Below, one piece after another: positions 15,201 to 29,359 of a stretch of 64,000 nt of DNA. The translations under genes and the position numbers were made by a program. Within the stretch, counting starts at the first letter, position 1, and each line of letters opens with the position of its first letter. The stretch is from the NCBI GenBank assembly GCA_964347335.1, contig CAYFYO010000001.1, positions 2,090 through 66,089 of the forward strand, in the 5' to 3' direction. The stretch comes from an uncultured Thermodesulfobacteriota bacterium (lineage in GTDB: Bacteria; Desulfobacterota; BSN033; WVXP01). A model generated the notes under the pieces. It saw only the letters and a list, made by a program, of their open reading frames with translations. It did not search any database and was not told the DNA's origin.

Positions 15201-15663
15201 GCGTGATGGGGACGATTCTCCAGATCCAAAGACAGGGGGATTGACTTATGGGACCATTATGGGAAAGGTCACCCTCAGGGAAGGTCGGGCCTCGACCAGC
15301 GATCTTTTACTCGACAGTGATTCCATAAGAATTTCGGCAGTGGGAGACTTTGAGATCCCCTCCGGCGGTCTGGATCTGCGGCTTGGACTTCGCCGAGTCG
15401 GTGCTCGGGGGAAGGTCATCAGAACAGTTCCTGTCTTTGGAAAAATTGTGACCACCGATCGGGGGAGTTTCATCCATTACTACCTCGAGGTGAAAGGCAC
15501 GATCGCTGAGCCAGAAGTGAAAGGGATTCCGTATCTGTCGCTTTCTGACGGCGTTTCTGGACTCATACACGAGCTGCTAGAGACGCCGAGAAAGGTGGTT
15601 CCCTTTCAAAGACAGCCGGATTTAGAAGAATATTTCGACCAGAGAAAGCATCCCCACCCCTAG
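12283..15663 (+). CDS. AsmA/TamB-like large envelope protein (N-terminal TM anchor, 1126 aa)
   Basis: A single N-terminal TM helix (LLLIGFVVVVILGIGVAYV) is followed by a long beta-rich, Gly/Arg-rich region characteristic of the AsmA family. Confidence 0.65.
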   Translation: MKKRSSALLLIGFVVVVILGIGVAYVRFYLGARLAEEALKTAIQSGLGGRATISRTVIHWLGRPGIEYRGLSIRGDDEEAGWLTVKRMIVRPELGSIFSKSIEWKSLELEGLVGRFTGGVGSFPMEYLVSMLPRVDWFEVRGGTLAWGEREIRDLFVSLGNLSTAGPFPVVLKGALKTKKGPPARVSVHGLAHGSSEEWAPWDLKLSAKVKAKGLDPTWLGDLLARSIPSQLAGSSLTIAAAFEGYLRGRFHSSGRVTIAGVRFLEGMDRVNVDFAFSWDGQKLEFQRIRLQTPSMPLEGRGVIRGRRGDDPVISFRVDCPWVSIRGQKSVFPFLPEKVRSFLKSINQGEITLMSMGFTGPLKSFGFPQDEESLLRWGGKIGFRNVVFPWRGETLELRRGLLNIDQGRLGGEALGLRLGDSELEISPLTLARPFGDQSIEMTLKGEVNLPDISKWISTGFIPEKLALPLSEIEVQSGTGEVDIRFEKRRGLPISSALTGSMFLRDAAIRIHHIPGTFEKMNGLVELFSTGISVRDVQGRWRNSTVRANGSVAIRSSDHSEIDFLMEGRLDLRNLREIESWRLLPVDIRKVLQEVNSPAGSGDYVVAVKGRVGSGDDIEVSGELSVRKGSFRLWDAYPVERVDGQIFFSRERISIPHLQGNWKNSDLALRAALTRPGAKFFRDLRFSGVFDLRDIAAERFERGSPRTWRKFLKPFEFYRGKALVEVNNQKRHDGASVDGHITFKEAEVRHVPVFPPLTDVEGRVSFHGKGIETVDVEGKFDSSLIRIRGDLAPASGDSQPFLSIQAERVDFEKVMSWPWTSGYSFGRKSRPPLAVRVRVDNGGFREIPFSDVQARLKLKGDRISFEEVTFISTQGQGLIRGWLGLGNDGKVSFEFRPYFLKVETNPIVRSFQSGEGEQELSGLCSALGVIRGGGNKAEEIVRSLNGEIGIFLEGGRIGQFGVLAQVFSLLNPSQRDGDDSPDPKTGGLTYGTIMGKVTLREGRASTSDLLLDSDSIRISAVGDFEIPSGGLDLRLGLRRVGARGKVIRTVPVFGKIVTTDRGSFIHYYLEVKGTIAEPEVKGIPYLSLSDGVSGLIHELLETPRKVVPFQRQPDLEEYFDQRKHPHP

Positions 15664-15949
15664 CCTCCATGATTCACGACTCTTTAGTATTCATGAATTC
15701 AGATCCGTAAGAAATTGAAAATCGCTGTAGTCGGTTTCGGCGGCGTGCTTTCGACCCGCTCAGGGCCACTCGAGCCCACAGCGTTCCCAAGAGGTGGTTT
15801 TGACGCTGGCCTGATTTTTTGAGAGGAAGAATCAGGCGACCCACTGAGCCCCTTCGGGGGCCATGCAATAGAGCGTTCACAACAAATCGCGTGGTGGGAC
15901 CCAATCAATTGATACGTGTGAAGCGTCGATGCTTTTGACCCGAATCGGA

Positions 15950-16030
15950 CGCTCGGCGATTCAGGTCAAAACTCAGAGATCTCAGTGTGCTCTGCGAAAG
16001 ATGGAGACGGACTTCACGCGCTTGCACTCG
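15950..16030. repeat. intergenic repeat copy A (~80 bp), paired with 27371-27442
   Basis: The sequence cgctcGgcgattcaggtcaaAactcagagatctc... ...gacttcacgCgcTtgcaCtCg aligns to copy B at about 85% identity with one 6-8 nt indel. It contains a GAGATCTC palindrome. Confidence 0.6.
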
Positions 16031-16158
16031 TTCTGAGGGGAGGGCTGAAAAGGCCGTGGTCGCAATCCTTCGACAAGCTCGAGACCCTTCCTCAAAGGAT
16101 CGCCAGGAGTTGGAAACCAGCGTTCCTCCCCCGCGACAATAGAAAGGATCATGGTTGC

Positions 16159-17502
16159 TCAAGGAGTGCGGAGCTCAACAATCTCACTCGTGCGAGGGTT
16201 TTTGCAAAAAGACTCCTTTGTGCGGTTAAAATAGCCGAGGAGGAGATGGGGAAAGGCCTCTCGGAGAAGCCTGAGCATATTCGAAATCCCGATCCCTGGA
16301 GTCTTCAAATCCCCGAGTTCATTGAGGTACCAATCTGGATCGATATTGAGGTTCCTCATCTGAATCATGTCGACCCCTGTCTGGCCAACCATCTGAACCA
16401 GGGACTCGATTTCACGTTTCTGGTCGGTAAATCCCGGGAAAACGAGGAGGTTAAGGGATACAGCGATTTTCCTCTTCTTGGCTCGCCGAATTGATTCGAG
16501 GACGTCCTCGAACCGATACCCCTCTGGTTGATGGTACCGCTCGTAGTACTTCGGCCTGGCGCTCGCGAGAGTGATTCGCAGGGCGTCCAAGCCTGCTGCG
16601 GCAAGTCGGTCTACGACCTTGGGAAGGCTCCCGTTAGTGTTGACATTGATGGTGCCCTTGAAGGTCTTTCTTCGAAGCGTTACGATCGTCTTTTCCAAGA
16701 GTTGATCCTGCAAAAGGGGCTCACCCTCGCAGCCCTGCCCAAAACTAACGATCGCCCCCTCAGCCCTGCTCATGTGAGGCAGTGCCACCTCGACGATCTC
16801 CTGTACGGTGGGAACAAAAGAGATCCTGAGGTGAGAGGCCTTGCAACCCTTCAAGGGCTGAGCAGATAAGCATCCGAGACACTTGGCGTTGCAACCGGGC
16901 GAAGTGGGAACGGGGATCTCCCACCGTCCATAGAACACGTTTTTCGCTGCGAAACAATGGTAGCTGAGGGCACAATGAGAGAGTTGCTTGAGGAGACGAT
17001 TGCGGGGATAGCGGTGCACAAGTTCTTGAACCCGAACCGCGAGTTGCTCATCGTTTTTGAAGAATCTCGGATGCCAATGGGGGTTGGCATCGAGAGAAAT
17101 CCCTGAAACCCAGAAATCGCCATCTCTGAATCCTACAGCCCCGTAAGCCCAGAGCGGGAGAATAGGGTGTTTCGTCTTCAGATGCGTGGCTGGCAGCAAA
17201 CATCTTAAGTAGCCAGGGGCCAAAAAGGCCGCCACGGCGGTGCATTCCAACTTACGGCCGTCGATGACCGCCTCCTTTACGGTCACGAAATTCTTCGATT
17301 CGGGATCCCATCCCACGGGATAACGGCCAGGTAGGGTGAAGAGTTGGCTTCCCTCGGGCAGTGGCGTCAGGCTGTCTGCATCGCCCGGCCGGTTCTCTCG
17401 TGCGGACTGAGCAGCCATGTGCAGGCTCGGATGGTCGAAAATCTGACCTTCTGGATCCGCGAAAATCATCCTGGGAAGGGGAGTACCGACTTGGGAGTGC
17501 AC
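16159..17502 (-). CDS. radical SAM domain protein with ~200-aa N-terminal domain of unknown function
   Basis: A CNAKCLGC (Cx3Cx2C) motif lies near residue 205 and is followed by a TIM-barrel-like radical SAM core. The N-terminal domain is unassigned. Confidence 0.65.
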   Translation of the reverse strand: MHSQVGTPLPRMIFADPEGQIFDHPSLHMAAQSARENRPGDADSLTPLPEGSQLFTLPGRYPVGWDPESKNFVTVKEAVIDGRKLECTAVAAFLAPGYLRCLLPATHLKTKHPILPLWAYGAVGFRDGDFWVSGISLDANPHWHPRFFKNDEQLAVRVQELVHRYPRNRLLKQLSHCALSYHCFAAKNVFYGRWEIPVPTSPGCNAKCLGCLSAQPLKGCKASHLRISFVPTVQEIVEVALPHMSRAEGAIVSFGQGCEGEPLLQDQLLEKTIVTLRRKTFKGTINVNTNGSLPKVVDRLAAAGLDALRITLASARPKYYERYHQPEGYRFEDVLESIRRAKKRKIAVSLNLLVFPGFTDQKREIESLVQMVGQTGVDMIQMRNLNIDPDWYLNELGDLKTPGIGISNMLRLLREAFPHLLLGYFNRTKESFCKNPRTSEIVELRTP

Positions 17503-17555
17503 CGCTTTTGCTCTCCTCCGACTCGGGGTATGCCCCGACTGGTACTTGGATGTCC

Positions 17556-18368
17556 TCAGTGGTTGAGGCTCCAGTCATATGGCTTGTATCGAATTCTGAT
17601 CCAGTTTGAGTTGTTTCTGAGGAACTCCTTTTTCTCCCCGTCATCGAGGTATCGGATGAGAAACTCCATCAGATCGTCCTGGGTTCCGAAATCGGCCCGA
17701 TACCATTTGAATATCTGAGAAATTCGTAACACCCTCCCCTGAGGAACGATTTCAACCTCTTGGGAGTTGACAAAGCTTTGGGCCGCCAGTTCAAGCTGTG
17801 TGTCGATTTCATCAGCCGAGTAGAAACCAATGGGAGGGCATGACTGGGAGCCACAGACCAAAGTGAAATGAATTCGATTGTCCATTGGCGAGACGATGAA
17901 GTCACACCGCGGATCGTTACCGGAGAAGGCCCTCCAAGGTCGATAGGGAATTCTTCTGTTTTCACGAAGAATTCCGTGTTCAATGTCGTTCAGGGAGAAA
18001 AGGTAGCCCCCGATATCGTATCTGACGCGAGTAAAGAACCCGCGCTTCTCCTTGACTGAGTCCTTGATTCTCAATTCCACGACTCCATGGACGACCATGG
18101 TGTTGTAAAGATTGATCCAAAAGGCCAGCCGCTGCTTTCGCTCTTCGAGAGATTTCAAATCATACTTTTTCAGAAGGCCAGCCAGTCTCACATAACGGTT
18201 GAACTGGGCAGTCCCTCGCATGGCAGCGTATCGGATTCTTCCTTTTTCGAGATCGAAAAAGGCGGCCTGAAGGTCACCGATTCCCTTTCTGAGAGCGATG
18301 TCGATGGGTTCACTCGGCTCCCTCCCTGAAGCGGCCTCTGAGTTAAGGACAATATCTCTTAATGCCAT
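17556..18368 (-). CDS. DUF547 family protein
   Basis: It has the AFWINLYN and HFTLVCGSQSCP motifs typical of DUF547. Confidence 0.6.
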   Translation of the reverse strand: MALRDIVLNSEAASGREPSEPIDIALRKGIGDLQAAFFDLEKGRIRYAAMRGTAQFNRYVRLAGLLKKYDLKSLEERKQRLAFWINLYNTMVVHGVVELRIKDSVKEKRGFFTRVRYDIGGYLFSLNDIEHGILRENRRIPYRPWRAFSGNDPRCDFIVSPMDNRIHFTLVCGSQSCPPIGFYSADEIDTQLELAAQSFVNSQEVEIVPQGRVLRISQIFKWYRADFGTQDDLMEFLIRYLDDGEKKEFLRNNSNWIRIRYKPYDWSLNH

Positions 18369-18390
18369 AGGAACGCTCGGGTTCCCCTGC

Positions 18391-19260
18391 CTAAAAGCGC
18401 TTGGGGTGGTATAGTATTTCCTGTTTTACCCTTACGAGCTCTTCTGCAATCTTGTAGGGGAGACAGATATCATCGCCGACAACACCCAGTTCAGCTTTTT
18501 CGAGCAGTTTGCCATGGAAATCTGAGCCTCCAGTCGTCACCAGCCCGAGTTTCCTGGCGAGTCTCTGATACTGGGCAGTTTGCTCGCGGGTGTGATCAGG
18601 ATAGAAAGCCTCGATACCCTTCAAGCCGTCTCGGGCGAGTTCTGCCACCAGTTTTTCAAGATCCTCTGGGATGCAATTCAATGTAAAGGGATGAGCCAGA
18701 ACAGGAACTCCGCCGGCCCTCAAAACGACTTGGATGGCTTCCCTCACATCGAAACGAAACTTGTCCACATACGCCGGAGCCCCCTGCGCCAAGTAGCGAT
18801 CAAACGCTTCGTCGAGAGAAAAGACATATCCCTTGTCCACCAGGACCTGAGCAAAGTGGGGTCTCCCAATCTGTCCTCCTCCTGAGGCCGCCACAACCTC
18901 CTGATAGGTGATGTCGATGCCGAGATTCTGCAACTTGTCCACGATTTTCGGATTTCTTTCAGATCTCGCCTGCTTCAGCCGCTCCAATTTCTCCTTGAGA
19001 ATGCCCCGCTCTGTTTCAACAAAATACCCGAGTAGATGAACACTTCCGATCCTGGCATTAGCGCTAATTTCAACGCCTGGAATAACCTCGAGTGAGACTT
19101 TCTGCCCCGCTTCAAGTGCTTCCCTCACCCCGTCCACCGTGTCGTGGTCTGTGATGGCGATGGCTTTTAGCCGCAGTTTTTTTGCCAGCTGAACCACGTG
19201 GGCAGGCTTCAGTGTTCCATCTGAGGCTGTGGTATGGATATGTAAGTCGATTTCGACCAT
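18391..19260 (-). CDS. PHP-domain metal-dependent phosphoesterase (TrpH/YciV-like)
   Basis: It starts DLHIHTTASDG and carries His/Asp metal ligands spread across a ~280-aa PHP fold. Confidence 0.8.
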   Translation of the reverse strand: MVEIDLHIHTTASDGTLKPAHVVQLAKKLRLKAIAITDHDTVDGVREALEAGQKVSLEVIPGVEISANARIGSVHLLGYFVETERGILKEKLERLKQARSERNPKIVDKLQNLGIDITYQEVVAASGGGQIGRPHFAQVLVDKGYVFSLDEAFDRYLAQGAPAYVDKFRFDVREAIQVVLRAGGVPVLAHPFTLNCIPEDLEKLVAELARDGLKGIEAFYPDHTREQTAQYQRLARKLGLVTTGGSDFHGKLLEKAELGVVGDDICLPYKIAEELVRVKQEILYHPKRF

Positions 19261-19380
19261 TGCCGCCCGTTCACTTGCAAATTCTAGAACGTCCTGAGAA
19301 TGCGAAACGAAACGCCGACGCTCCGGGTCACCCTAAATTTATCAAAACCAGGGGGCGACTTCAAAGACAACCGATGGGTC

Positions 19381-19812
19381 TCATTTGAGGTAATAATCCG
19401 ATACTCTCCAAACACCGTCTTTATCCAACATTGGGGTCACAGTCTCTAGCGCCACCTTTTTCTTCTCGAAAGAGGTTTCATACTGGATAACCACGTATTG
19501 CCCGTCAGGAGCGCCCGGCAGAGTTTTCGTATATCGGCTTGATTTCAGTTTCCTGGAAATCACCCTCCCAAGGGGGATTCTGAAAGCCCGTAACGATGCT
19601 TCCCATTGTTCCCTCGTGAGGGCTTCTTTGAAAAGCTGGGCTGCCTCATTCCAGCTTGTTGCATATTGACCTTCATCGACGAGTGACAACCAGGCCCCAG
19701 AGGCTGCCACGGCAAGCTCCTCTGGTGTTTGATCGGCGAGGACAGTTTGGCTGCAAAGCAGCAAGAGAGGGAGTAACGATATGGTGATGGCTTTCTCTCT
19801 CAGACCGATCAT
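19381..19812 (-). CDS. secreted DUF4019-like protein
   Basis: An N-terminal signal peptide is followed by a ~120-aa domain. The family call is by pattern and is weak. Confidence 0.45.
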   Translation of the reverse strand: MIGLREKAITISLLPLLLLCSQTVLADQTPEELAVAASGAWLSLVDEGQYATSWNEAAQLFKEALTREQWEASLRAFRIPLGRVISRKLKSSRYTKTLPGAPDGQYVVIQYETSFEKKKVALETVTPMLDKDGVWRVSDYYLK

Positions 19813-20101
19813 GATGATTCTCCTTTGCGTGACTCAGGGACTGATCACATGGCCTCTATGAATCACGAACCCTGAGTGTTCGTGAATAGGCCCCCGCTGC
19901 AAATTAAAGATCTTTGTTGCGGGTTTCGACAGAAAACCTCCCACTCGCTCGGGGCTGGCCCTGAGGAGACTCGATAGGTCCTCAGGACAGATTGTTCATG
20001 GAGCCATAAAAATTCATGAATCATCCGGGATAGGTGATCGTCAAACTTGAGCTGTTAATGACCGAGATGAAACAGGTGAGTCGGCTTCACTCCGTGATGA
20101 C

Positions 20102-20485
20102 TCAAAAAATCTTCGCCCAAATCAAATAGACTGTGGTTATCGCCTGAGATAACGAAACAACCAGCACGGCCACCAGTATGGACAATGATATCGGTGTTCT
20201 GAACTCATCCCGGCCCCTTTTGATAAAGGACGTGTGGATTCCGAAAGCGAACATCCCAGCGAGAGATAGAATCAGCGAAAATATGAGACCAGCGAAAGCG
20301 TGCTCAAAGACAAGCACCAATCCCTACATGACGAGAAACACGAACGGGAAATGTAGGATTAGGAAACCAGTGATCGCCCCGGGTAGACCAAACAAATCCC
20401 ACTCCTTCCAGTAGGCGGAGTCAATTTCGTGATTTATCATTAGGACGGAATTGACCAAGTAGAGCCAAAACAAAAGATCTTCCAT
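20102..20485 (-). pseudogene. small membrane protein gene interrupted by an in-frame TAG (or read-through/sequencing error)
   Basis: The 53 codons from ATG 20485 (MEDLLFWLYLVNSVLMINHEIDSAYWKEWDLFGLPGAITGFLILHFPFVFLVM) end in TAG at 20324-20326. The same frame then continues as GLVLVFEHAFAGLIF... to 20102. Confidence 0.4.
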
Positions 20486-20694
20486 GATTCACTCTGCCTC
20501 CCCATCGTAAGCATCTTTGGCCCCAAGGCCCAAACGGACCTGTCTTAAATAGCCGGGCCCTTCGACGACCCGCATCATGCAGGGGAGGGGACGGTGAGAA
20601 GAAAAACAACAGACAGCGTCCACTTTGCCCACCGCCCTGAATTTCTGGATTCGGGGTTCACGCAGTCACCCGTTCAAATCGCTTTTTCAGACCT

Positions 20695-20733
20695 CAAAAA
20701 GGCTCCGCCCTTTCGGTCAGCTTTGGTGGGCGG
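20695..20733 (-). terminator. intrinsic terminator after the 66-aa membrane ORF
   Basis: Minus-strand CCGCCC...GGGCGG stem followed by AGCCUUUUUG directly after the TAG stop. Confidence 0.4.
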
Positions 20734-20934
20734 CTACATGACCAGGAGGCCAAGGAGCAAAAGGGACACGCCAAAGGCTATCCAGACGTACCCTAAATAG
20801 ACAGCTTTCCTCCCCGTGTACCCTCGGTAACCTCTGCCCAAATAAGCCTTTTGGGTTCTCACCGCCGAGATACCGGACCCGATTAACCAGGCAGACAATG
20901 CGAAAAGGATAATAACGTGTATGAGGGTGCGCAT
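20734..20934 (-). CDS. 66-aa two-TM membrane protein
   Basis: Two hydrophobic helices flank a basic loop. It begins 13 nt after the DUF2007 gene ends and is followed by a terminator. Confidence 0.4.
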   Translation of the reverse strand: MRTLIHVIILFALSAWLIGSGISAVRTQKAYLGRGYRGYTGRKAVYLGYVWIAFGVSLLLLGLLVM

Positions 20935-20949
20935 CTGCTCTGATGTCTA

Positions 20950-21348
20950 CTACCAGGTCGTCCCGCAATTATCACAAGCCCATTTCTTCCGACGGAAGAA
21001 GATGGGAAGCAGAAACAAAAGTGACGGAATCAGGGACCAAAGTGAATAGCGGTTCGATGAGATTGAGGAAGATCCACACCTCGGACAAATTTCCTCAGGA
21101 GAGGATTCGAAGCGGATCTCCTCGGTGTCGGTGAGTTCTCCCGTAGCATCTGCATTGAGGATTTCACGGGCCCGATCCAATGCCTCTTCTGGCACCTGAA
21201 CTTTGACGCCTCCAACGGCCTCAGAATGTGTCCAATTCACCCAGACGAGGTGCTCATCGAGAACAACGGCCGGAATACCCTCCGCTTCGAGCTTTCCCCT
21301 GGCGATGTGGGCCTTGTAAGGTTCCCTAAAGCTGGCGACAGTCTTCAT
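20950..21348 (-). CDS. DUF2007 (PII-like) domain protein with TM segment and C-terminal zinc ribbon
   Basis: MKTVASFREPYKAHIARGKLEAEGIPAVVLDE matches DUF2007. A TM helix and CPRCG...CDNCG follow. The ORF extends to 21426 with an alternative start. Confidence 0.5.
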   Translation of the reverse strand: MKTVASFREPYKAHIARGKLEAEGIPAVVLDEHLVWVNWTHSEAVGGVKVQVPEEALDRAREILNADATGELTDTEEIRFESSPEEICPRCGSSSISSNRYSLWSLIPSLLFLLPIFFRRKKWACDNCGTTW

Positions 21349-21409
21349 CCGAGTCCCTTCTCGTTTAGACGGCTGAAGGCCGAGCGATTTCCCTGCCCAT
21401 GTCTGTCGA

Positions 21410-21778
21410 TCACTTTGCCGACTCATCCATTTGCATCATTCCGAAGGTGTTTCCTTCGGTGTCCCTGCATGTAGCGAAATGACCCACTCCAGGGATCGCT
21501 CTCTTGGGCTCTATGATCTCCCCTCCACTTGCCTCAACTTTGGCGGCGAATTGATCAACCGACGGAACATCGATCACATTTATCGTGGTGTCCGAGGGAT
21601 TGACTCTCTTCGCTAGACCGCCGTCGATACCGGGGGCATCTGGGTCACCCGTCTTGATGAGCCAGTAATCGATCGGTCCCTCCCACTTTTCAATTTTCCA
21701 CCCAAATACATCCCGGTAAAACTCGATTGCCCGTGCGACATCTTCTGCACCGAGATCAAAATGAACAACCCGTAGCAT
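21410..21778 (-). CDS. VOC/glyoxalase-bleomycin resistance family protein
   Basis: 122 aa with a VHFDLGAEDVARAIEFYRDVFGW beta-alpha-beta-beta-beta module and C-terminal GVGHFATCRDTEGNTFGMMQ. Confidence 0.8.
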   Translation of the reverse strand: MLRVVHFDLGAEDVARAIEFYRDVFGWKIEKWEGPIDYWLIKTGDPDAPGIDGGLAKRVNPSDTTINVIDVPSVDQFAAKVEASGGEIIEPKRAIPGVGHFATCRDTEGNTFGMMQMDESAK

Positions 21779-22134
21779 CGATCATCTCCTTGTACTTAGG
21801 TGTGACGATTTCCCTTCCGGCTAATCAGCAAGTGCGTCGGCTGCGAGCGAGACGCAGCCGGAACCACCATCTTGCCTTAGCCTTTTCACGATGAAATTTT
21901 CAAGAGAGGGAGGCAGAGCCGCCTCCCCATGGTGGGGCTGCATGATCCGGAGTGGCATGGAACCCCGATGCGTCGAACTTGCTTCCTCAGACCCCTTCAT
22001 TCGTTTCGATCATGAGTTTGAGTCCACCGATGCTTCCGAGGCCGATACGAGTCAGCGTCAATTCCTTTGAGGTACAACTCTTCACACCTGAGACCAGCTG
22101 CCGCAAATCACCGCGCCTGTCAGGCAGTCCGAGG

Positions 22135-22452
22135 TCAGACGCTCATTTCAGCCTTAACCTCGTAATGTTGTGAACGCTCATCAAACCGTAAAAGGAGGGC
22201 TCTCGCTTTTGCCGGGACCACTGCTTTTTCGTAGTCTTCTCCTGCAAAAGTTCGAATAGCGTCGATTGAATCAAACCACATGATCGTCATAAACTCCACC
22301 TCATCGCCCATGGTCCGCCTCAAAAGCTGAATTCCACGATACCCGGAAATCTGCCGATTCTGTATGCCAATGAAAATCTCGCTCTTGAGCAGGACTTCAT
22401 AAGCATCAGCGTTCGTCGCGGTCGTCCAGCCGTGCCAAATTCGGCTCATCAT
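22135..22452 (-). CDS. small ferredoxin-like-fold protein, ABM-monooxygenase-like (tentative)
   Basis: It is 105 aa, and its size and hydrophobic pattern fit the ABM/Dabb fold. No motif is certain. Confidence 0.4.
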   Translation of the reverse strand: MMSRIWHGWTTATNADAYEVLLKSEIFIGIQNRQISGYRGIQLLRRTMGDEVEFMTIMWFDSIDAIRTFAGEDYEKAVVPAKARALLLRFDERSQHYEVKAEMSV

Positions 22453-22494
22453 GGTGAAATCCTCCTCGGGACCATAGGGAATATCCTCGCCGAT

Positions 22495-23286
22495 TCAAAA
22501 TGCAATCTCATCCCCATAATCCATGATCCTGCACTCCATACCCATCTTCTCCACCTGTCTCTTGAAGTACCGATCGTCTGCTGGGTTAACATTCCTTTTC
22601 CAGAAGAAATTCCCATTGTAGTGGCATGGTATGACAATTTTCGGCGAAATGAGTCTAACGGCATCGAGTGCTTCGTCTTCATCCATCGTGTTTTTTGCGA
22701 TGTGTCCCCCGATTGGAATCATCAGAATATCTGGGCTCAATCCCTCCCATTCCTTTTGAATCAGGCTGTCGCCCAAGTTGGCGAGTGTCGTGTTACCGAC
22801 TGTAAACTGAAATCCGATAGCTCCCATGCCGACACGCTCCCCTCGGCCAGGAGCAATCTCGCGGTGGACGATCCCAAATAGAAAACTCACAGCCAATGGG
22901 CCATGAACGGATTTAAGGCCCTGGATTGGCACGCCCTCCACCTCAATTTTTTCGTCGACGCCTAAGCCATATATCCTTTCAAGCCTTGTGGAGTACTGGA
23001 CGCCTCGGCTCCGAGGGTTGAGCAAGAGTTTGTCTTCTCCTTCTTTTCTCACAATATCCTTGCCGCAAACAACCGGGGCATTGGAGCTTTGAGCCACTCT
23101 AGCAACGTACCAATAGTGGTCGGGGTCTCCGTGTGTCGCCAGTATGTGGGTGGTACTTTTCCACTCAGATTGTGGTATCAGACTATTGAGCTTTCCAATC
23201 CACAAATTGAGGCCCGGATCGATCGCAATCTTCGTTCCGGCGGCTTCTATGATGAATGCGTTATAGAGGAAGTACCTGAGTTTCAT
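22495..23286 (-). CDS. MBL-fold metallo-hydrolase
   Basis: HxHxDH-type motif (ILATHGDPDHYWY) and downstream His/Asp ligands. Confidence 0.8.
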   Translation of the reverse strand: MKLRYFLYNAFIIEAAGTKIAIDPGLNLWIGKLNSLIPQSEWKSTTHILATHGDPDHYWYVARVAQSSNAPVVCGKDIVRKEGEDKLLLNPRSRGVQYSTRLERIYGLGVDEKIEVEGVPIQGLKSVHGPLAVSFLFGIVHREIAPGRGERVGMGAIGFQFTVGNTTLANLGDSLIQKEWEGLSPDILMIPIGGHIAKNTMDEDEALDAVRLISPKIVIPCHYNGNFFWKRNVNPADDRYFKRQVEKMGMECRIMDYGDEIAF

Positions 23287-23294
23287 AGCAAATG

Positions 23295-23313
23295 AAGGCC
23301 GAGATCAGCTGCC
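23295..23313. promoter_or_regulatory. conserved 19-mer AAGGCCGAGATCAGCTGCC, copy 1, 8 nt from the MBL start codon
   Basis: An identical 19-mer recurs at 27063-27081, 9 nt from the ICMT start. It contains GATC and CAGCTG. Confidence 0.5.
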
Positions 23314-23408
23314 TGGAGACAGTGAACCCTTTCCCTGTCGGACCGCAAGGGTCGTCAGACGGCTCGGTGAATGCGCTTTTCGAGCAGAATTTCCCTTCCA
23401 TTCAGTTC

Positions 23409-23666
23409 CTAGGTTTTTCCCTTAAAGTAAACCCGTCTGACGAATAAATACCAAAACAACAGGATCCAAGGTAACAACAGGGCGATAGCGTTCAGAGGAC
23501 TCTGTGGTATTTCCGCAATGTGCCCCCAATCTCCATCCGTTGGGAACCACTTCCACGAAGCGACTGCGACTCCAAAGCAAAACCCGAAAGCAAAAGCGAG
23601 GGCTACCCCGGATAGTCTGTCGAACTTTTCTACGCGCATTCCTCTATTGTCATTCTTGCCGGCCAA
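23409..23666 (-). CDS. 85-aa two-TM membrane protein
   Basis: Hydrophobicity pattern only. Confidence 0.3.
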   Translation of the reverse strand: MAGKNDNRGMRVEKFDRLSGVALAFAFGFCFGVAVASWKWFPTDGDWGHIAEIPQSPLNAIALLLPWILLFWYLFVRRVYFKGKT

Positions 23667-23989
23667 CAGCTGTGAGTTGAACGGTTGGGAATCGGACCCA
23701 GCGATGATCCTCGCCGCGCATCCACGTTTCGCTCCAGTGAGTGGTTAGGTGGTCGATTTCCATTCATCTGCTTTCGGATCCCAGAAAGGCCCTCGCAATC
23801 CAATCTCAGAGAAGATCTCTACCATCTCATCAGGGCCTGGGCGCCGAGATTCGACTGTCAATCGGTTCCCGTACCATGTCACTGCGAGATGCCATAATGA
23901 GACATTTTGATCAGCGGGCGTTTCGGAACGTTCTTGGCCTCGCACCATTTTTCGACTGTTTCTTCCGACCGAAAGAGTAGCATGGTCGC

Positions 23990-24433
23990 TCAAGTGTAAA
24001 TGATGTCGTCCCACCATTTTGCTGCGGGTACAGCAAAGTGAGCCACGCAATCTTGATGGACAGGCTTGCCGCCTCTAACTTCCAGGGTGATTGGCGCTCC
24101 AGTGAACCCATCAGATGCACGGATTACCGTATCCCGATGGAGTGCCGCGGCAACTCCGAAAGCATCCCATACGCAATTCGCATAATAGGATTTGTTTCCT
24201 ACAGTCACAAGGAAGGATGTCTCAACGCCGGAAAACGGCGGGGCCATAATAATTTCCGAGCTTCCGCCTGGCTCCAGAACGAGGAGCCGCCTTGCGTATA
24301 GGCGTTTGAAGGATGACGCTACCTTCTCAACCGATGCCCCCAATTCGTTTGAGACGTCAGCAGAAGTTGGCATCATTGTGGTACGAGCAATCATCTCGTA
24401 GATCGTCAGCTTGACCTTCGTATCAAAATCCAT
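23990..24433 (-). CDS. alkylmercury (organomercurial) lyase MerB-family protein
   Basis: It has an N-terminal wHTH-like region, then a Cys-x2-Asp (YANCVWDAFG) and a second Cys (HQDCVAHFAVPAA). These are spaced like the MerB catalytic Cys/Asp/Cys triad. Confidence 0.55.
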   Translation of the reverse strand: MDFDTKVKLTIYEMIARTTMMPTSADVSNELGASVEKVASSFKRLYARRLLVLEPGGSSEIIMAPPFSGVETSFLVTVGNKSYYANCVWDAFGVAAALHRDTVIRASDGFTGAPITLEVRGGKPVHQDCVAHFAVPAAKWWDDIIYT

Positions 24434-24571
24434 GGCTACCCCTCATATAAAGTGTTTCGGCCACCGGAGTGCCCAGGAAGTCCATCACCGCAGATGTGGT
24501 GCACGTAATAGTCAGTTGCGGGATGACTGAGACCCACACGATCTGCCGCACGAAGGGAGTGGACCGGCGTC

Positions 24572-25084
24572 CTAAATTGCCTCAAGGAATTCAGGCCGGT
24601 ACTTGGCCACTCCGGATATGCCCTGGATCTCCGCCGCATTCAGTACCAATATCATGAATGCGTTATCTGGTGCCTCCCACTCGCTCTTGATCCCATAACG
24701 ACTTCCAGGCTCAAATCCAAATCGGGGGTAGTACTCGGCGTGCCCCAGAACGATCACAAATGGAAACCGCCTGCTTGCCAACTTGGCGATGCCGGTTCTG
24801 ACCAGCTCCGAGCCGATCCCCTGTTTTTGGTACTCCGGGAGCACCGCCATCGGTGCCAAGCCCATTCCTTGAATCGCACGGTCTTCGCCCTCGATCGTAA
24901 CGGGACTGAAGAGGATGTGGCCCACAATTTGATTGCGTTTCGTAGCCACCAGGGACAACAGATCCTTACAGTTTCGTCGCAGTTTGTCGACGATATCGGC
25001 CTCTTGACTTCGACCAAAAGCCCGCAGATTTACGACACGGATTGGTTTTTCATCCTTTCGCTGTTCTTCGCGAATCCTGACCAT
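24572..25084 (-). CDS. GNAT family N-acetyltransferase
   Basis: It has the acetyl-CoA binding motif QKQGIGSELV and a YYPRFGF C-terminal motif. The start was chosen at MVRIREEQ. Confidence 0.75.
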   Translation of the reverse strand: MVRIREEQRKDEKPIRVVNLRAFGRSQEADIVDKLRRNCKDLLSLVATKRNQIVGHILFSPVTIEGEDRAIQGMGLAPMAVLPEYQKQGIGSELVRTGIAKLASRRFPFVIVLGHAEYYPRFGFEPGSRYGIKSEWEAPDNAFMILVLNAAEIQGISGVAKYRPEFLEAI

Positions 25085-25184
25085 CTTCCTACGCCGAACA
25101 ATCGATCCCAGCGGCCCTGAGCGATGGCGTTGGGTCGATGTTGAGCAGAATCGAAGCATCGAAAGGTCTGACTCCGGCGGTGGG

Positions 25185-25757
25185 TTAGGCTGCGTGAAGT
25201 CCCCCGCGATCCCTTGCCATGAAGAGTGCCACTAGACCGACAGGAACATAGACCAGCCCGAGTATGACAAAGGTGAACTTCGGGATCGCACACCAGCGCG
25301 CAACTACCGGCCAAAGGGATGTTTCAGTGCCAAGTAGGACGCGTATCAGGGCGTAGTTTTCTAAGCTATCAAAGAGCCCTGCAGCGACCTGTCCCCAAGC
25401 CAGTAGAAGGCCAGCGGTTGAGAGAAATGCAATTCGCTCCGACAAGCGGCGCGATAGCATCACACAACCCAATCCAATCGCAATCGGATAGGCAACCAAG
25501 AATAGACAATCAAGCCCGAGATTCAGTCCTGCATAGACACGACCGACTTCCCCCCACGACTCCACAATGCGCTGAGCAGTCGACAACTCTCCAGCAAATT
25601 CGTAGGAGATAATACCGGCCGGGGCAAACTCTGTTTTTAAGGGCACGCCCAGGAGGTTCAAGGAGAGCATCAGAACAAGGGTAATGATCAGAAGCACAAT
25701 GAAGGTTGGCGTCTGAGCGGATATGGTGATCCATTCGAAAGGATGTCGAAGTTTCAT
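25185..25757 (-). CDS. integral membrane protein (5 TM), unknown function
   Basis: Hydrophobicity only. Its TAA stop lies inside a GCCTAAC heptamer. Confidence 0.5.
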   Translation of the reverse strand: MKLRHPFEWITISAQTPTFIVLLIITLVLMLSLNLLGVPLKTEFAPAGIISYEFAGELSTAQRIVESWGEVGRVYAGLNLGLDCLFLVAYPIAIGLGCVMLSRRLSERIAFLSTAGLLLAWGQVAAGLFDSLENYALIRVLLGTETSLWPVVARWCAIPKFTFVILGLVYVPVGLVALFMARDRGGLHAA

Positions 25758-25912
25758 CTGACTCTCTCCGTAAGATTACGCTGGCTCTGGGCCCGATGAT
25801 GAGCTTGGTGTGAATTCAGCCGTCCGCAACCTCATGATAATGGTTACTTGGCACGGCGGACCCAGCGGAATCTTGTTCAGGTACATGACGTGGTTATGTG
25901 GCCGCATCAGGA

Positions 25913-26320
25913 TTATGTTATGTCCAGAAAATGGGTCTTGATGTATCTGCAAGCCTCCTCAACACTCGGTAAAATTTTCGTGCAGTATCTGACCATCCAT
26001 GGGCTGCAGTATTTGAACGAGAGAGGAGAGAAGGCAACGACGAATTTTCCGAGATCGTGGCTCGCGTAGAAAACCTCCATACTTGTCCCGATGCTTGGTT
26101 TGCAATAATTGACGAGGACAATATCTGCATCACGAATATCCTGCAAATCGAACTCAACAATCTCATTCGCCGAATCTACCTCTTTGTCGCGCAAATTCCT
26201 GCGCATTGGATCTAATAGTCTAAAATGCGATGAAAGCAGAGACTTCGCAATATCTCGCCATTTACGAGCCACGCCCTCGTGCTCATCCATAATTGGCCCA
26301 CTGAGGTAGACGGTCTTCAT
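25913..26320 (-). CDS. nucleoside 2-deoxyribosyltransferase-like protein
   Basis: It has a VYLSGPI N-terminal motif and Rossmann-like layout typical of the family, and it sits in a lower-GC patch. Confidence 0.45.
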   Translation of the reverse strand: MKTVYLSGPIMDEHEGVARKWRDIAKSLLSSHFRLLDPMRRNLRDKEVDSANEIVEFDLQDIRDADIVLVNYCKPSIGTSMEVFYASHDLGKFVVAFSPLSFKYCSPWMVRYCTKILPSVEEACRYIKTHFLDIT

Positions 26321-26474
26321 CTCACGATCTCTTCCTCTGCCACCGAACGCTCCGGATAGCCTGCCGCTATCGAGTGGCAGCCAAATGGCGGTCAGCCTTC
26401 ATGCGATGATCGAGCCATATTTCATGTCTCGGGTCAGAATATCCAGCAGAAGGCACTCGCCGTCTTTGGATCGG

Positions 26475-27053
26475 TCAGAATAAGAAAGGAATGAACATCT
26501 TGGTTTGTTTCATGTAGTCTCGATAGGCGGAGCCAAAAAAGCTAATATTTTCGATTTCTTCCGCTTTAGAGGTGGCCACGAGGAAAACAGTCGCCATGGC
26601 AGCCAAACCCCCACCCAGCCAATGAGGCCGTTTGAAAAACACCCCCCATGCAAGAAACAACAGTGAACTGTAGAGAGGATGCCGAATGTATTTGAACGCC
26701 CCCACGGTGACTAACTGGGTGGTTTTCTCCAGCCCGACCAGGGCTGCGTCATCACGTTTATGGTCTGGTTTCCCTACGATACGCAATAGCTTCATGCCAT
26801 GAACGACCAGAAACAAAGAGATGAATAATAGCGGCCACGAAACAAGCTGGTGAATGGAAAAAGGATCATGGAGCCAAAATTCAAGGTTCAATAAGATCAA
26901 GACCAAAATAGCCTCCCAGGCAAAAAATCGAAAAAAACCATGGGAACGGAAATTGGCCAATGATTGCCATGATACATAGATGATTCCAGCGCTCGCCCCA
27001 GCAAAAACAATGAATTTGAGCAGATTCATAAGATCGCTCGTGTAGAGGGTCAA
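26475..27053 (-). CDS. isoprenylcysteine carboxyl methyltransferase (ICMT)/PEMT-family membrane methyltransferase
   Basis: Multi-TM with the C-terminal RHPLY motif (IRHPLYSSLLFLAWG) and an EE box. It has a TTG start, and an ATG at 27029 is also possible. Confidence 0.7.
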   Translation of the reverse strand: MTLYTSDLMNLLKFIVFAGASAGIIYVSWQSLANFRSHGFFRFFAWEAILVLILLNLEFWLHDPFSIHQLVSWPLLFISLFLVVHGMKLLRIVGKPDHKRDDAALVGLEKTTQLVTVGAFKYIRHPLYSSLLFLAWGVFFKRPHWLGGGLAAMATVFLVATSKAEEIENISFFGSAYRDYMKQTKMFIPFLF

Positions 27054-27062
27054 TTGAGGCCA

Positions 27063-27081
27063 AAGGCCGAGATCAGCTGCC
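27063..27081. promoter_or_regulatory. conserved 19-mer AAGGCCGAGATCAGCTGCC, copy 2
   Basis: Identical to 23295-23313. Confidence 0.5.
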
Positions 27082-27370
27082 CTGAGCGAGCGCGGCGAGT
27101 GAGAGGGTCAGGTGTGTTGACGGGTTAGGTAGAAACACCTTATTCGCGCTAAGCGAGTTTAGCTGATCAGTCGCCCAATATACGACGTGCTTTGACGCTC
27201 CGGCGATCCTTTCCCGAAACCTATTGTCTATCAGGTTTGGCAATACGCCTCAACTTATGATCTTATGCACGTCCCCTGTAACAACAACGGTCTAACGCTC
27301 AAACTCATACGGACGCATTAGATATCTTCACATTGGTTTTCAAGACAATGGTCGACCCCTCTCTCTCGCC

Positions 27371-27442
27371 CGCTCAGCGATTCAGGTCAATACTCAGAGA
27401 TCTCTGTGAGAGATGAAAACTGACTTCACGTGCGTGCATTGG
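27371..27442. repeat. intergenic repeat copy B, paired with 15950-16030
   Basis: It contains a perfect 12-bp palindrome CAGAGATCTCTG and is about 85% identical to copy A. Confidence 0.6.
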
Positions 27443-27634
27443 ATTAAGATTACCTAGAAATTATTCAAGGAATTCGATATCTTGTCAAGCACAATCTCTC
27501 GTATTAAGAATAGCAGATATTGAAAGAGGACGATCCTCTGAAACAGCTCGATCACGGGCTACATGGGATCTGGAGGAAACACGACGCTGTTCGGACCGAA
27601 ACACAAGGAAATCTAGCGGGGTTTCGGGGGGTCC

Positions 27635-29359
27635 ATGGACAATACAGCGCGGGCCGACAAGGAATTTCCCAGGGAGTTTGTTCCGACAGACGCAGATCTC
27701 GGGAAGTGGCCTGAGATCGAGCCCTTGTTTCGTGCCCTCTATTCGAGGGAGATAAAGACCCAGGCTGACCTAGAGCGATGGCTTTTGGATTTGAGCGAGC
27801 TGGCTTCCTGTCTCGATGAGGAGGGCAGCCGCCGCTACATTGCCATGACCTGCCACACCGATGATCCGGTGGCGGAGAAGGCGTATCTCCATTTCGTGGA
27901 AGCGGTTGAACCCCACTACAAGCCGTGGTGGCAGAAGCTTTATAGGAAGTACGTCGATCATCCTTTTCACGATGGTCTCGGCCGAGAGAGATATGCTGTC
28001 CTCGACAGAAAGATCGAAAACCACGTCCGCCTATTCAGGGAGGAGAACATCCCCCTCCAAGTGGAAGAATCGAGGCTCTCCCAGCAGTATCAGAAGATCA
28101 CCGGGGCGATGACCGGTTGGTTCGAAGGGAAAGAGCAGACCCTCCAGCAGCTCGCCATGTACCTTGAGCAACCGGACAGGAATGTCAGACGGACCGTATG
28201 GGAGACCATTACTGCACGCCGCCTTGATGATCGGGAGGAACTCGAAGAGATTTTCGATCGGCTCATCAGTCTTCGACAAGAAATCGCCAAGAACGCAGGT
28301 TTTGAGAATTATCGGGATTATGCCTTTCTCCACCGGGAGCGATTTGACTACACTCCGGAGGACTGTCCCCGTTTTCACGAGGCCATTGAGACCGTGGTCG
28401 TTCCCGTGGCGAGAAAGATCCTGCAAGAACGCCACAGGCGACTCGCCGTGGATCGTCTCCGGCCGTGGGATCTGAATGTGGATCCAGAGGGAAGGCCTCC
28501 CCTTCAACCCTTCAGGAGTTCAGACGAACTGATTGCGGGATGCCATCGAATTTTTGGTCACATGGATCCTGAGCTCGGTCGCCGCTTTGATTTTTTGAAG
28601 GAAAGGGGCCTTCTCGATCTGGAAAGTCGGAAAGGCAAGGCGCCGGGAGGCTACCAGAGCAACCTGGGCGAAGTGAGGTTACCCTTTATTTTCATGAACG
28701 CTGTGGGGATCGATCGCGATGTCCGGACTCTGCTCCACGAGAGCGGCCATGCTTTCCACACCCTCGAGGCCCGGGGAGAGCCGCTTTTCCTGTATCGGGA
28801 GGCTCCCATCGAGTTTTGCGAGGTCGCCTCCATGGGCATGGAGCTTTTGGGCGCACCGTTCCTCGATGAATTCTACGATGAGGCGGAGTCTCGACGGTCC
28901 TATCGGAATCTCCTGGAGGAGGTGGTTATTCTATTTCCCTGGATTGCGACGATCGATGCTTTCCAGCACTGGATCTACACACACGAGGGGCACACCCGTC
29001 GAGACAGGAAGCGGTCCTGGTTTCAACTCTGGCAGCGATTCGGCGGTATTGAGGATTGGGAGGGTTACGAGGACGGCCTCCTTTATCTATGGCACAAGCA
29101 ACCCCATCTATTCCTTCATCCCTTCTACTACATTGAGTACGGAATCGCCCAGTTAGGAGCCCTCCAAGCCTGGCAGTCAGCGAGAAAAGGCCTCCAGCAA
29201 ACAATCCAGCGTTACCGGTCCGCGCTTTCTCTGGGCGGTTCGAAGCCGCTCCCGATGCTGTTTGAGACCTGCGGCATCCGCTTCGACTTCGGCCGAAATA
29301 CGGTAGAGACGCTGATGGACGAGATCATGGAGGAGTTGCACTCCCTCCGAGGAAACTAA
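27635..29359 (+). CDS. pepF: M3B family oligoendopeptidase (PepF-like)
   Basis: HESGHAFH zinc motif (HExxH) with a downstream Glu; ~570 aa. Confidence 0.85.
   Translation: MDNTARADKEFPREFVPTDADLGKWPEIEPLFRALYSREIKTQADLERWLLDLSELASCLDEEGSRRYIAMTCHTDDPVAEKAYLHFVEAVEPHYKPWWQKLYRKYVDHPFHDGLGRERYAVLDRKIENHVRLFREENIPLQVEESRLSQQYQKITGAMTGWFEGKEQTLQQLAMYLEQPDRNVRRTVWETITARRLDDREELEEIFDRLISLRQEIAKNAGFENYRDYAFLHRERFDYTPEDCPRFHEAIETVVVPVARKILQERHRRLAVDRLRPWDLNVDPEGRPPLQPFRSSDELIAGCHRIFGHMDPELGRRFDFLKERGLLDLESRKGKAPGGYQSNLGEVRLPFIFMNAVGIDRDVRTLLHESGHAFHTLEARGEPLFLYREAPIEFCEVASMGMELLGAPFLDEFYDEAESRRSYRNLLEEVVILFPWIATIDAFQHWIYTHEGHTRRDRKRSWFQLWQRFGGIEDWEGYEDGLLYLWHKQPHLFLHPFYYIEYGIAQLGALQAWQSARKGLQQTIQRYRSALSLGGSKPLPMLFETCGIRFDFGRNTVETLMDEIMEELHSLRGN

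Follow-up and report, generated by a model that had tools for sequence, protein, structure and literature searches.

Two similar repeats bracketing a gene block in an uncultured Thermodesulfobacteriota bacterium are probable members of a dispersed, hairpin-rich intergenic family

Among the dispersed intergenic repeats described in bacteria, BOX elements have been shown to have terminal inverted repeats (TIRs) and target-site duplications (TSDs) (PMC3049150), REP units take the form of short stem-loops, either single or clustered as BIMEs (PMC3184786), and REPINs consist of REP doublets (PMC3116915). Here we analyze a repeat in a 64-kb stretch of DNA (referred to as the window) from an uncultured Thermodesulfobacteriota bacterium, where two similar copies, A and B, bracket a run of minus-strand genes of ~11.4 kb. 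The first-pass annotation of this DNA proposed that the pair marks the ends of a genomic island or cassette array, or else that it represents a genome-wide regulatory or RNA element. We consider it very probable that A and B do not mark island ends and are instead independent members, each partly decayed, of an intergenic family that is lineage-specific, multi-copy, non-coding, and rich in hairpins. Judged by sequence, this family, a modular repeat in the intergenic DNA of an uncultured Thermodesulfobacteriota lineage from marine sediments, appears not to have been described before, and it has no known sequence relative.

The best ungapped stretch shared by the two copies is 43 nt at 88% identity (15945-15987 and 27366-27408), and the similarity extends to ~85 nt in a gapped alignment once a 9-nt indel is allowed. 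The shared core is GCGATTCAGGTCAA[A/T]ACTCAGAGATCTC, which includes an AGATCT (BglII) palindrome, and a 22-specified-base version of this core, allowing <=3 mismatches, matches twice in the 64-kb window versus 0.00 times expected from shuffles. At copy A, the neighboring genes converge, with a YhdP-like gene (12283-15663, +) on the left and a radical SAM gene (16159-17502, -) on the right. At copy B, the neighbors diverge, with an ICMT/PEMT-like gene (26475-27053, -) on the left and an M3 oligoendopeptidase gene (27635-29359, +) on the right. The direct repeat, its core with the palindrome, and its position at both strand-switch boundaries are thus as first annotated, but the repeat is longer than the ~80 bp given there. 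The nhmmer profile of the family has a consensus of 354 nt, which is composed of three modules, L (1-70), M (71-268), and R (269-354), and the two window copies correspond to different combinations of them, as follows.

15748-16033, + strand: repeat copy A, M-R form, profile positions 72-353 corresponding to 15748-16029 (nhmmer E=1e-78; also delimited by alignment with the empty site in contig L034).
15972-15983, + strand: AGATCT-centered palindrome within the R module of copy A.
27307-27443, + strand: repeat copy B, short L-R form, profile positions 1-70 joined to 269-351 and corresponding to 27307-27439 (nhmmer E=9e-12 and 2e-15).
27366-27375, + strand: junction motif TCGCCCGCTC at the L-R joint of copy B.

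The family is dispersed, and this is what we observe in contigs from related metagenomes (designated L with a number). Exact matches to the 22-base core number 14 and fall on 13 contigs from three related assemblies, JABAOD, JABAOF, and JABAOH, the last of which is a pooled assembly from deep sediments of the Gulfs of Kathiawar (PMC8319310), and the flanks of these matches are unrelated between contigs. The core pattern was not found in 185,579 reference genomes or among viral contigs, and the full-length element matches nothing in plasmid and phage collections. With overlapping contigs merged, there are 12 distinct loci in the metagenome contigs in addition to the two in the window, and the density is ~1 copy per 30 kb in window and contigs alike. 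The copies occur in full-length (L-M-R), M-R, L-R, and partial forms, where the short L-R form of copy B is also present at two other unrelated loci (L008/L009 and L013/L010/L005), the L007b copy begins at profile position ~60-72, partial copies are found in L002 and at L008 6773-6904, and some copies carry an optional 24-nt internal duplication. Every copy is intergenic, all orientations relative to neighboring genes occur, and the genes beside the copies are unrelated housekeeping genes (DAG kinase, Hsp20, asparaginase, histidine kinase, GidA-family protein, rubrerythrin, M42 peptidase, and others).

If the two window copies were att-like direct repeats left by site-specific integration of an ~11.4-kb island corresponding to the whole minus-strand block, they should be specific to its two ends. 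Two same-orientation copies exactly at the strand-switch boundaries do look like such a pair, but the repeat is at 12 other unrelated loci and A and B differ in form (M-R versus L-R). The R module that A and B have in common is 83% identical between them, whereas in the same module comparison A is 88% identical to L007b/L008f and B is 89% identical to the short copy in L013. By these identities, A and B are not a matched pair, each being closer to copies at unrelated loci. The proposal of a genome-wide element was essentially right as to dispersal, but the evidence favors mobile or mosaic repeat DNA over a regulatory RNA or small RNA (sRNA).

A presence/absence polymorphism between close relatives is observed directly at the site of copy A. 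Contig L034, from the same Joint Genome Institute (JGI) sample as contig L031, spans the radical SAM-YhdP region, and its identity to the window is 93% at the 3' end of YhdP, 89% in the adjacent spacer, and 96% on the radical SAM side. L034 aligns with the window through ...CCCGCTCAGGGC (15766) and resumes at TGAGGGGAGGGCTGAAAAGGCC (16034), and the DNA inserted in the window relative to L034 is 15767-16033 (267 nt). Where L034 reads CCCGCTCAGGGC-TAGCC-CTGGGCGGAGGCCTGAAAAGGCC, the window has the 267 nt of element between CAGGGC and TGAGGGGAGGGCTGAAAAGGCC. The GC-rich palindrome into which copy A is placed is intact in L034, where it reads CCGCTCAGGGC-TA-GCCCTGGGCGG, and the YhdP-radical SAM spacer is ~30-126 nt in three relatives versus 496 nt in the window. 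L034 also carries a ~300-nt repeat of a second family, family B, ~40 nt beyond the empty site, which the window lacks. This reciprocal presence and absence between L034 and the window shows that gain or loss of both the element and family B was recent. The features at the left side of copy A are the following.

15755-15766, + strand: 5' arm (CCCGCTCAGGGC) of the older GC-rich palindrome, with copy A at its apex.
15661-15766, + strand: flank module D, a small dispersed intergenic repeat abutting copy A on the left, also present at L031 7606-7705 (78%) and L007 9017-9106 (72.5%).

Two further observations concern this same spacer. In L021, the radical SAM-YhdP spacer (13052-14670) is 1.6 kb versus 30-126 nt in other relatives, and because L021 holds other inserted DNA there, the convergent spacer looks like a recurrent insertion hotspot. 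To the right of copy A in the window, 16082-16117 (+) has a sub-threshold likeness to CRISPR-DR58 (21 bits versus a gathering score of 38, E = 0.15), which overlaps a small inverted repeat (16062-16073 / 16092-16103), occurs once, and is part of no array; this likeness is most likely due to chance.

The gene block between the copies was first annotated as not belonging to the core genome, and its absence from close relatives was to be expected if it were an island. Pfam confirms most of the gene calls made for it, namely radical SAM, DUF547, PHP, DUF4019, DUF2007, VOC, MBL, MerB-like, GNAT, and nucleoside deoxyribosyltransferase (NDT)-like, but the "ABM-like" open reading frame (ORF) has no Pfam hit and the ICMT/PEMT hit is below threshold. 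The block divides into three parts.

16159-20488, - strand: conserved syntenic part, radical SAM, DUF547, PHP, DUF4019, and DUF6713 (tblastn/blastn against L015, L020, L021, L022, and L031).
20489-26476, - strand: variable segment, small ORFs, DUF2007, VOC, a 105-aa ORF, MBL, an 85-aa ORF, MerB-like, GNAT, a membrane protein, and NDT-like.
26475-27053, - strand: ICMT/PEMT-like membrane methyltransferase gene with which the minus-strand run begins (52% identity and synteny in relatives).

In L015 and L020, with an M3 peptidase of 76% identity, the genes are observed in the order YhdP / radical SAM-DUF547-PHP-DUF4019-DUF6713-DUF5362-ICMT / M3-GNAT-ACT, and no element is present at either position in these two contigs. 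The YhdP / radical SAM-DUF547-PHP order is also kept in L021 and L022. Thus relatives that have no repeats at these places keep both ends of the block next to the same flanks, radical SAM-DUF547-PHP beside YhdP and ICMT beside M3, and the difference is internal: segment 20489-26476 is replaced by a single DUF5362 gene in L015/L020. The edges of this variable segment are the DUF6713 start and the ICMT stop, not the repeats. L031, which is 90-92% identical to the window at the DNA level, has the same segment genes in the same place with a 1.25-kb indel, and because of this, 20489-26476 is a sub-clade-specific flexible region that is vertically inherited on this timescale. The description "not core genome" therefore holds for 20489-26476 only.

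Composition gives a similar picture. The GC content of the block is 0.48-0.54, the same as that of the flanks, and the low-GC patch that had been pointed out is real in that the 26001-27000 bin is the lowest 1-kb bin (0.483), but only marginally. The tetranucleotide distance is raised only at 22-28 kb, where it has its highest values in the window (1.76-1.91 versus about 1.0-1.4 elsewhere), and this stretch corresponds to the portion of the block that the 76% relatives lack. The variation of the inner block among relatives and its atypical tetranucleotide composition are what an island would show, but its normal GC, the syntenic block ends in relatives without repeats, and the empty site at A in a close relative that has the block genes all speak against one, as does the absence of tRNA genes from the 64-kb window and of an integrase from the block flanks, whose genes are housekeeping (the right flank judged by synteny). 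We therefore take the island reading to be refuted, on both of the grounds that the first-pass annotation had named for this, namely many copies at unrelated loci and related genomes with the same block ends and flanks.

An integron-like cassette array (CALIN), in which the repeats or intergenic palindromes would be attC-type sites, is given very little credence. The run of small same-strand, "cassette-like" genes (GNAT, VOC, MerB-like, DUFs) and some gaps of ~140-155 nt are suggestive of one. However, a scan of both strands for the R''(RYYYAAC)...R'(GTTRRRY) pair pattern gave 0 attC-like sites over 16.0-27.7 kb versus 1.9 expected by chance, the block gaps share no recurrent imperfect palindrome, no integrase is found in the flanks, and the gene order is stable in the 90%-identical relative.

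Several other observations were made in and around the block. The broken membrane gene of the first-pass annotation is the DUF6713 membrane-protein gene (20099-20488, -), which has an in-frame stop at the position of a Tyr in the relative's protein (…HFPFVFLVM*GLVLVF…), and this may reflect a pseudogene or else an error in the assembly. Between ICMT and M3, the 76% relatives (L015 8356-10000; also L014 and L016) have a spacer of 1646 nt versus 582 nt in the window, and because ~500 nt of it is 84% identical to a 171-aa gene of L017 (7272-7768), the spacer in these relatives probably holds an unannotated or decayed gene. An exact 19-mer, GGCAGCTGATCTCGGCCTT, is present at 23295-23313 and 27063-27081 (-), ~10 nt upstream of the MBL and ICMT starts; it has 2 matches in the window versus 0.03 expected, its 15-nt core is also upstream of the L031 MBL gene, and it could be a shared translation or regulatory signal, or the trace of a duplication. 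Outside the block, a thiamine pyrophosphate (TPP) riboswitch (RF00059, 33594-33708, -, 69.1 bits, E = 1.6e-11) lies upstream of a minus-strand operon, which probably specifies a transporter for thiamine or a thiamine precursor because the operon in relatives encodes NMT1-like, BPD_transp_1, and ABC_tran proteins.

Next, we consider what kind of sequence the element is. The consensus has stop codons in 6/6 frames, and the indels between copies, of 1-2 nt, are not multiples of three; therefore, the element is non-coding. A short ORF on the minus strand of the R module (MQAHEVSFHLSQSTLRSLSFDLNR, in which the 9-nt indel keeps the frame) was considered and rejected on these same grounds, and also because the region is not retained in the diverged partial copy L021, which is from a Thermodesulfobacteriota metagenome-assembled genome (E = 2e-13). 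What the element does have is three predicted hairpins, given here for copy A.

15808-15838, + strand: hairpin H1, GGCCTGATTTTT-TGAGAGG-AAGAATCAGGCG, consensus stem 12 bp (one compensatory pair in L021).
15848-15861, + strand: hairpin H2, GCCCC-TTCG-GGGGC.
15935-15969, + strand: hairpin H3, consensus 14-bp stem with the 7-nt loop CCGCTCA (three compensatory pairs).

Conservation of H1 and H3 is observed in L021, where the H3 stem is perfect although both sides are changed in 3/14 aligned pairs, a degree of covariation that is reached by 0/500 shuffles and that collapses in slid registers, and where H1 is retained with one double change. Because these compensatory changes are unmatched by shuffles, H1 and H3 appear to be under selection. 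Among the ~90%-identical copies, there is no covariation on either strand, and the alifold covariation term is a penalty. Copy B lacks H1, H2, and the 5' arm of H3.

These hairpins raise the question of whether the family represents a structured non-coding RNA present in many copies, which could be an sRNA family or a leader or untranslated-region element that regulates adjacent genes in cis. The compensatory changes in H1 and H3 of the diverged copy would fit such an RNA, as would several single changes that preserve G-U pairs on the + strand. Copy B is also favorably placed, as seen from the following feature.

27460-27488, - strand: putative sigma-70-like promoter, TTGACA-17-AATAAT, 11/12, directed through copy B toward the ICMT run (consensus match only).

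Copy B, which is located between this strong promoter match (27488->27460) and the start codon of ICMT, therefore probably belongs to the transcribed leader of the minus-strand ICMT run. However, copy A has no promoter-like or terminator-like signals, the orientation of copies and their distance to neighbors are inconsistent, and the functions of the neighbors are unrelated. Furthermore, many copies are truncated or are without all three hairpins (the L-R forms), which is unexpected in a functional RNA. The folding energy of single sequences is no better than that of shuffles (z = +0.5 to +1.3), the alifold term is against it as noted above, and no Rfam 15 family matches either window copy or a full-length copy, even at E<=10 or E<=1. 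We regard the RNA reading as improbable, and we return to the reading of A and B as members of a family of dispersed repeat DNA.

All of the module junctions observed carry the motif CCCGCTC / GCTCAGGG. In the L-R form, two copies of TCGCCCGCTC that are separated by 207 nt have crossed over, where the first is at the L-M boundary and the second is in the 5' arm and loop of H3, and the H3 loop itself contains the junction motif CCCGCTC. At the left junction of copy A, GCTCAGGG is common to flank and element, and in L007b the element is fused to the initial ~30 nt of family B at CCCG(A/C)TCC, a motif of similar sequence. No degenerate left module is detectable in copy A or L007b; families B and D act as alternative left modules of the element.

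Other repeat families are present as well. Family B is a second non-coding dispersed repeat of ~300 nt with no credible ORF, which has a copy in the window at ~501-797 and is directly adjacent, on the left, to two of the element copies in L008 (7825-8130 and 4153-4242). Family C is a ~255-nt dispersed intergenic repeat (L008 6943-7198; L020 2939-3197 and 9075-9312; L011 8555-8783; L015 6396-6623) that occupies the DUF4019-DUF6713 spacer of L015/L020 and was not detected in the window. Because the element abuts or joins families B and D, and family C is also present in relatives, the intergenic DNA of this lineage is a mosaic of repeat modules.

How these modules came to be spread is a separate question from whether they form a family. 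In our favored explanation, the family would be non-autonomous and would depend on an enzyme, encoded at another place in the genome, to move or recombine it in trans. Hairpins or single-stranded DNA would be what this enzyme recognizes, and the short motif CCCGCTC / GCTCAGGG would be where it joins DNA. Copy A, in the M-R form, was inserted at the apex of the GC-rich palindrome in the short convergent YhdP / radical SAM spacer, and copy B, in the L-R form, is located in the divergent spacer upstream of the ICMT gene run. The copies would flank the run because strand-switch spacers tolerate insertions, the gaps within the run being short. An effect of the copies on neighboring genes is something that we infer only.

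A number of points weigh against this explanation. The element has no TIRs, in that the end-to-end score is 14 versus a shuffle mean of 12.9 (sd 2.9), with 204/500 shuffles scoring as high or higher, and there is no TSD at the sole reconstructed site, where 5 nt (TAGCC) were replaced; at other copies, no flanking direct repeats are seen by eye. No transposase or recombinase is found beside any copy or in the examined window flanks. The copy count for the source genome comes from 64 kb only, and the metagenome contigs that carry copies are not assigned to genomes. The empty-site comparison applies to copy A only, site B having no close-relative comparison, and the hairpin covariation comes from one diverged copy and would be explained equally well by a function at the RNA level. 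Because of the missing TIRs and TSD, the mode of spread could be recombinational and not transpositional.

The alternative that follows from this last point is that the repeats spread without a dedicated transposase, by microhomology recombination, template switching, or gene conversion at CCCGCTC / GCTCAGGG, which we view as possible, though doubtful. The shared GCTCAGGG exactly at the left junction of copy A, the crossover of two TCGCCCGCTC copies in the L-R form, and the fusion of L007b with family B are all junctions of the type that such events would produce, and there would be no need for the TSD, TIR, and transposase that were not found. However, microhomology alone leaves unexplained how new, unrelated loci were colonized to a density of ~1 copy per 30 kb, and the presence of the L-R form at three unrelated loci together with the conserved hairpin loop suggests recognition by a protein. 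At the other extreme, the element and families B, C, and D might all be substrates of an undescribed hairpin-directed recombination or transposition system in Thermodesulfobacteriota, a more speculative proposal that we think unlikely. In such a system, an enzyme encoded elsewhere (a RAYT-like HUH nuclease or other single-strand recombinase) would cut CCCGCTC in the H3 loop, and modules would be joined and inserted at the apices of GC-rich palindromes without TIRs or TSDs, resulting in the mosaic forms.

Whichever mechanism applies, membership of A and B in a dispersed family removes a false island call, as similar short repeats at strand-switch spacers can be two hits of such a family. The family provides direct evidence that close relatives have recently gained and lost copies, and it has conserved hairpins as well as a junction motif that recurs and is located in a hairpin loop. 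Repeats of this kind fragment metagenome assemblies, can carry or disrupt regulatory signals, and can serve as strain markers. If a dedicated enzyme does act on these repeats, REP/RAYT-like biology would be extended to a new phylum.

Compared with known systems, the locus as a whole resembles genomic islands and cassette arrays in that its inner part (20489-26476) is variable, compositionally atypical, and made up of accessory-type small enzymes on one strand. It differs from them in having no attC sites, no integrase, no tRNA, and no unique flanking direct repeats, and in that the block ends are core synteny and the inner segment is vertically shared with a 90%-identical relative.

The repeat itself shares several properties with MITEs (miniature inverted-repeat transposable elements) such as Correia/NEMIS, Nezha, and RUP (PMC10969869, PMC3184786), as it is small, non-coding, multi-copy, and intergenic, has strong secondary structure and variants with internal deletions, and is polymorphic for presence or absence between close relatives. 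However, the TIRs and TSDs that define MITEs are absent, the element is not AT-rich, and no parent insertion sequence was found beside the copies or in the plasmid and phage collections; it is the absence of TIRs and TSDs that led us to reject assignment to this class. With the REP-targeting insertion sequences IS1397, ISKpn1, and IS621 (PMC3184786), the likeness is that copy A is at the apex of an older GC-rich palindrome. Those insertion sequences are autonomous and encode a transposase, whereas the present element is non-coding, and the comparison concerns the one site that was reconstructed.

The REP/BIME and REPIN-RAYT systems (PMC3184786, PMC3116915) are closer. They too consist of GC-rich intergenic palindromes, often between convergent genes and in mosaic clusters, with no TIR or TSD, a conserved hairpin, and proposed mobilization in trans by a single-copy enzyme. 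The present unit differs in being ~354 nt with three different hairpins and long unpaired stretches, and the part of the locus that is REP-like is the target palindrome at site A.

BOX repeats (boxA-boxB(n)-boxC; S. pneumoniae / S. suis; PMC3049150) differ from the present family in the TIRs and TSDs that it lacks and in their Firmicutes rather than Thermodesulfobacteriota hosts, so that the likeness to them is architectural only. In architecture, BOX is likewise a composite intergenic repeat of modules, where an internal module may be absent (the L-R form corresponding to A1C1) or partly duplicated (as in the 24-nt duplication) and where alternative end modules occur. The sizes (<150 to about 380 nt), the predicted stem-loops, the unrelated genes nearby, and the occasional nesting with other repeats are also alike. 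By analogy, then, the architecture of the family is nearest to that of the dispersed mosaic intergenic repeats, BOX, REP/BIME mosaics, and REPINs.

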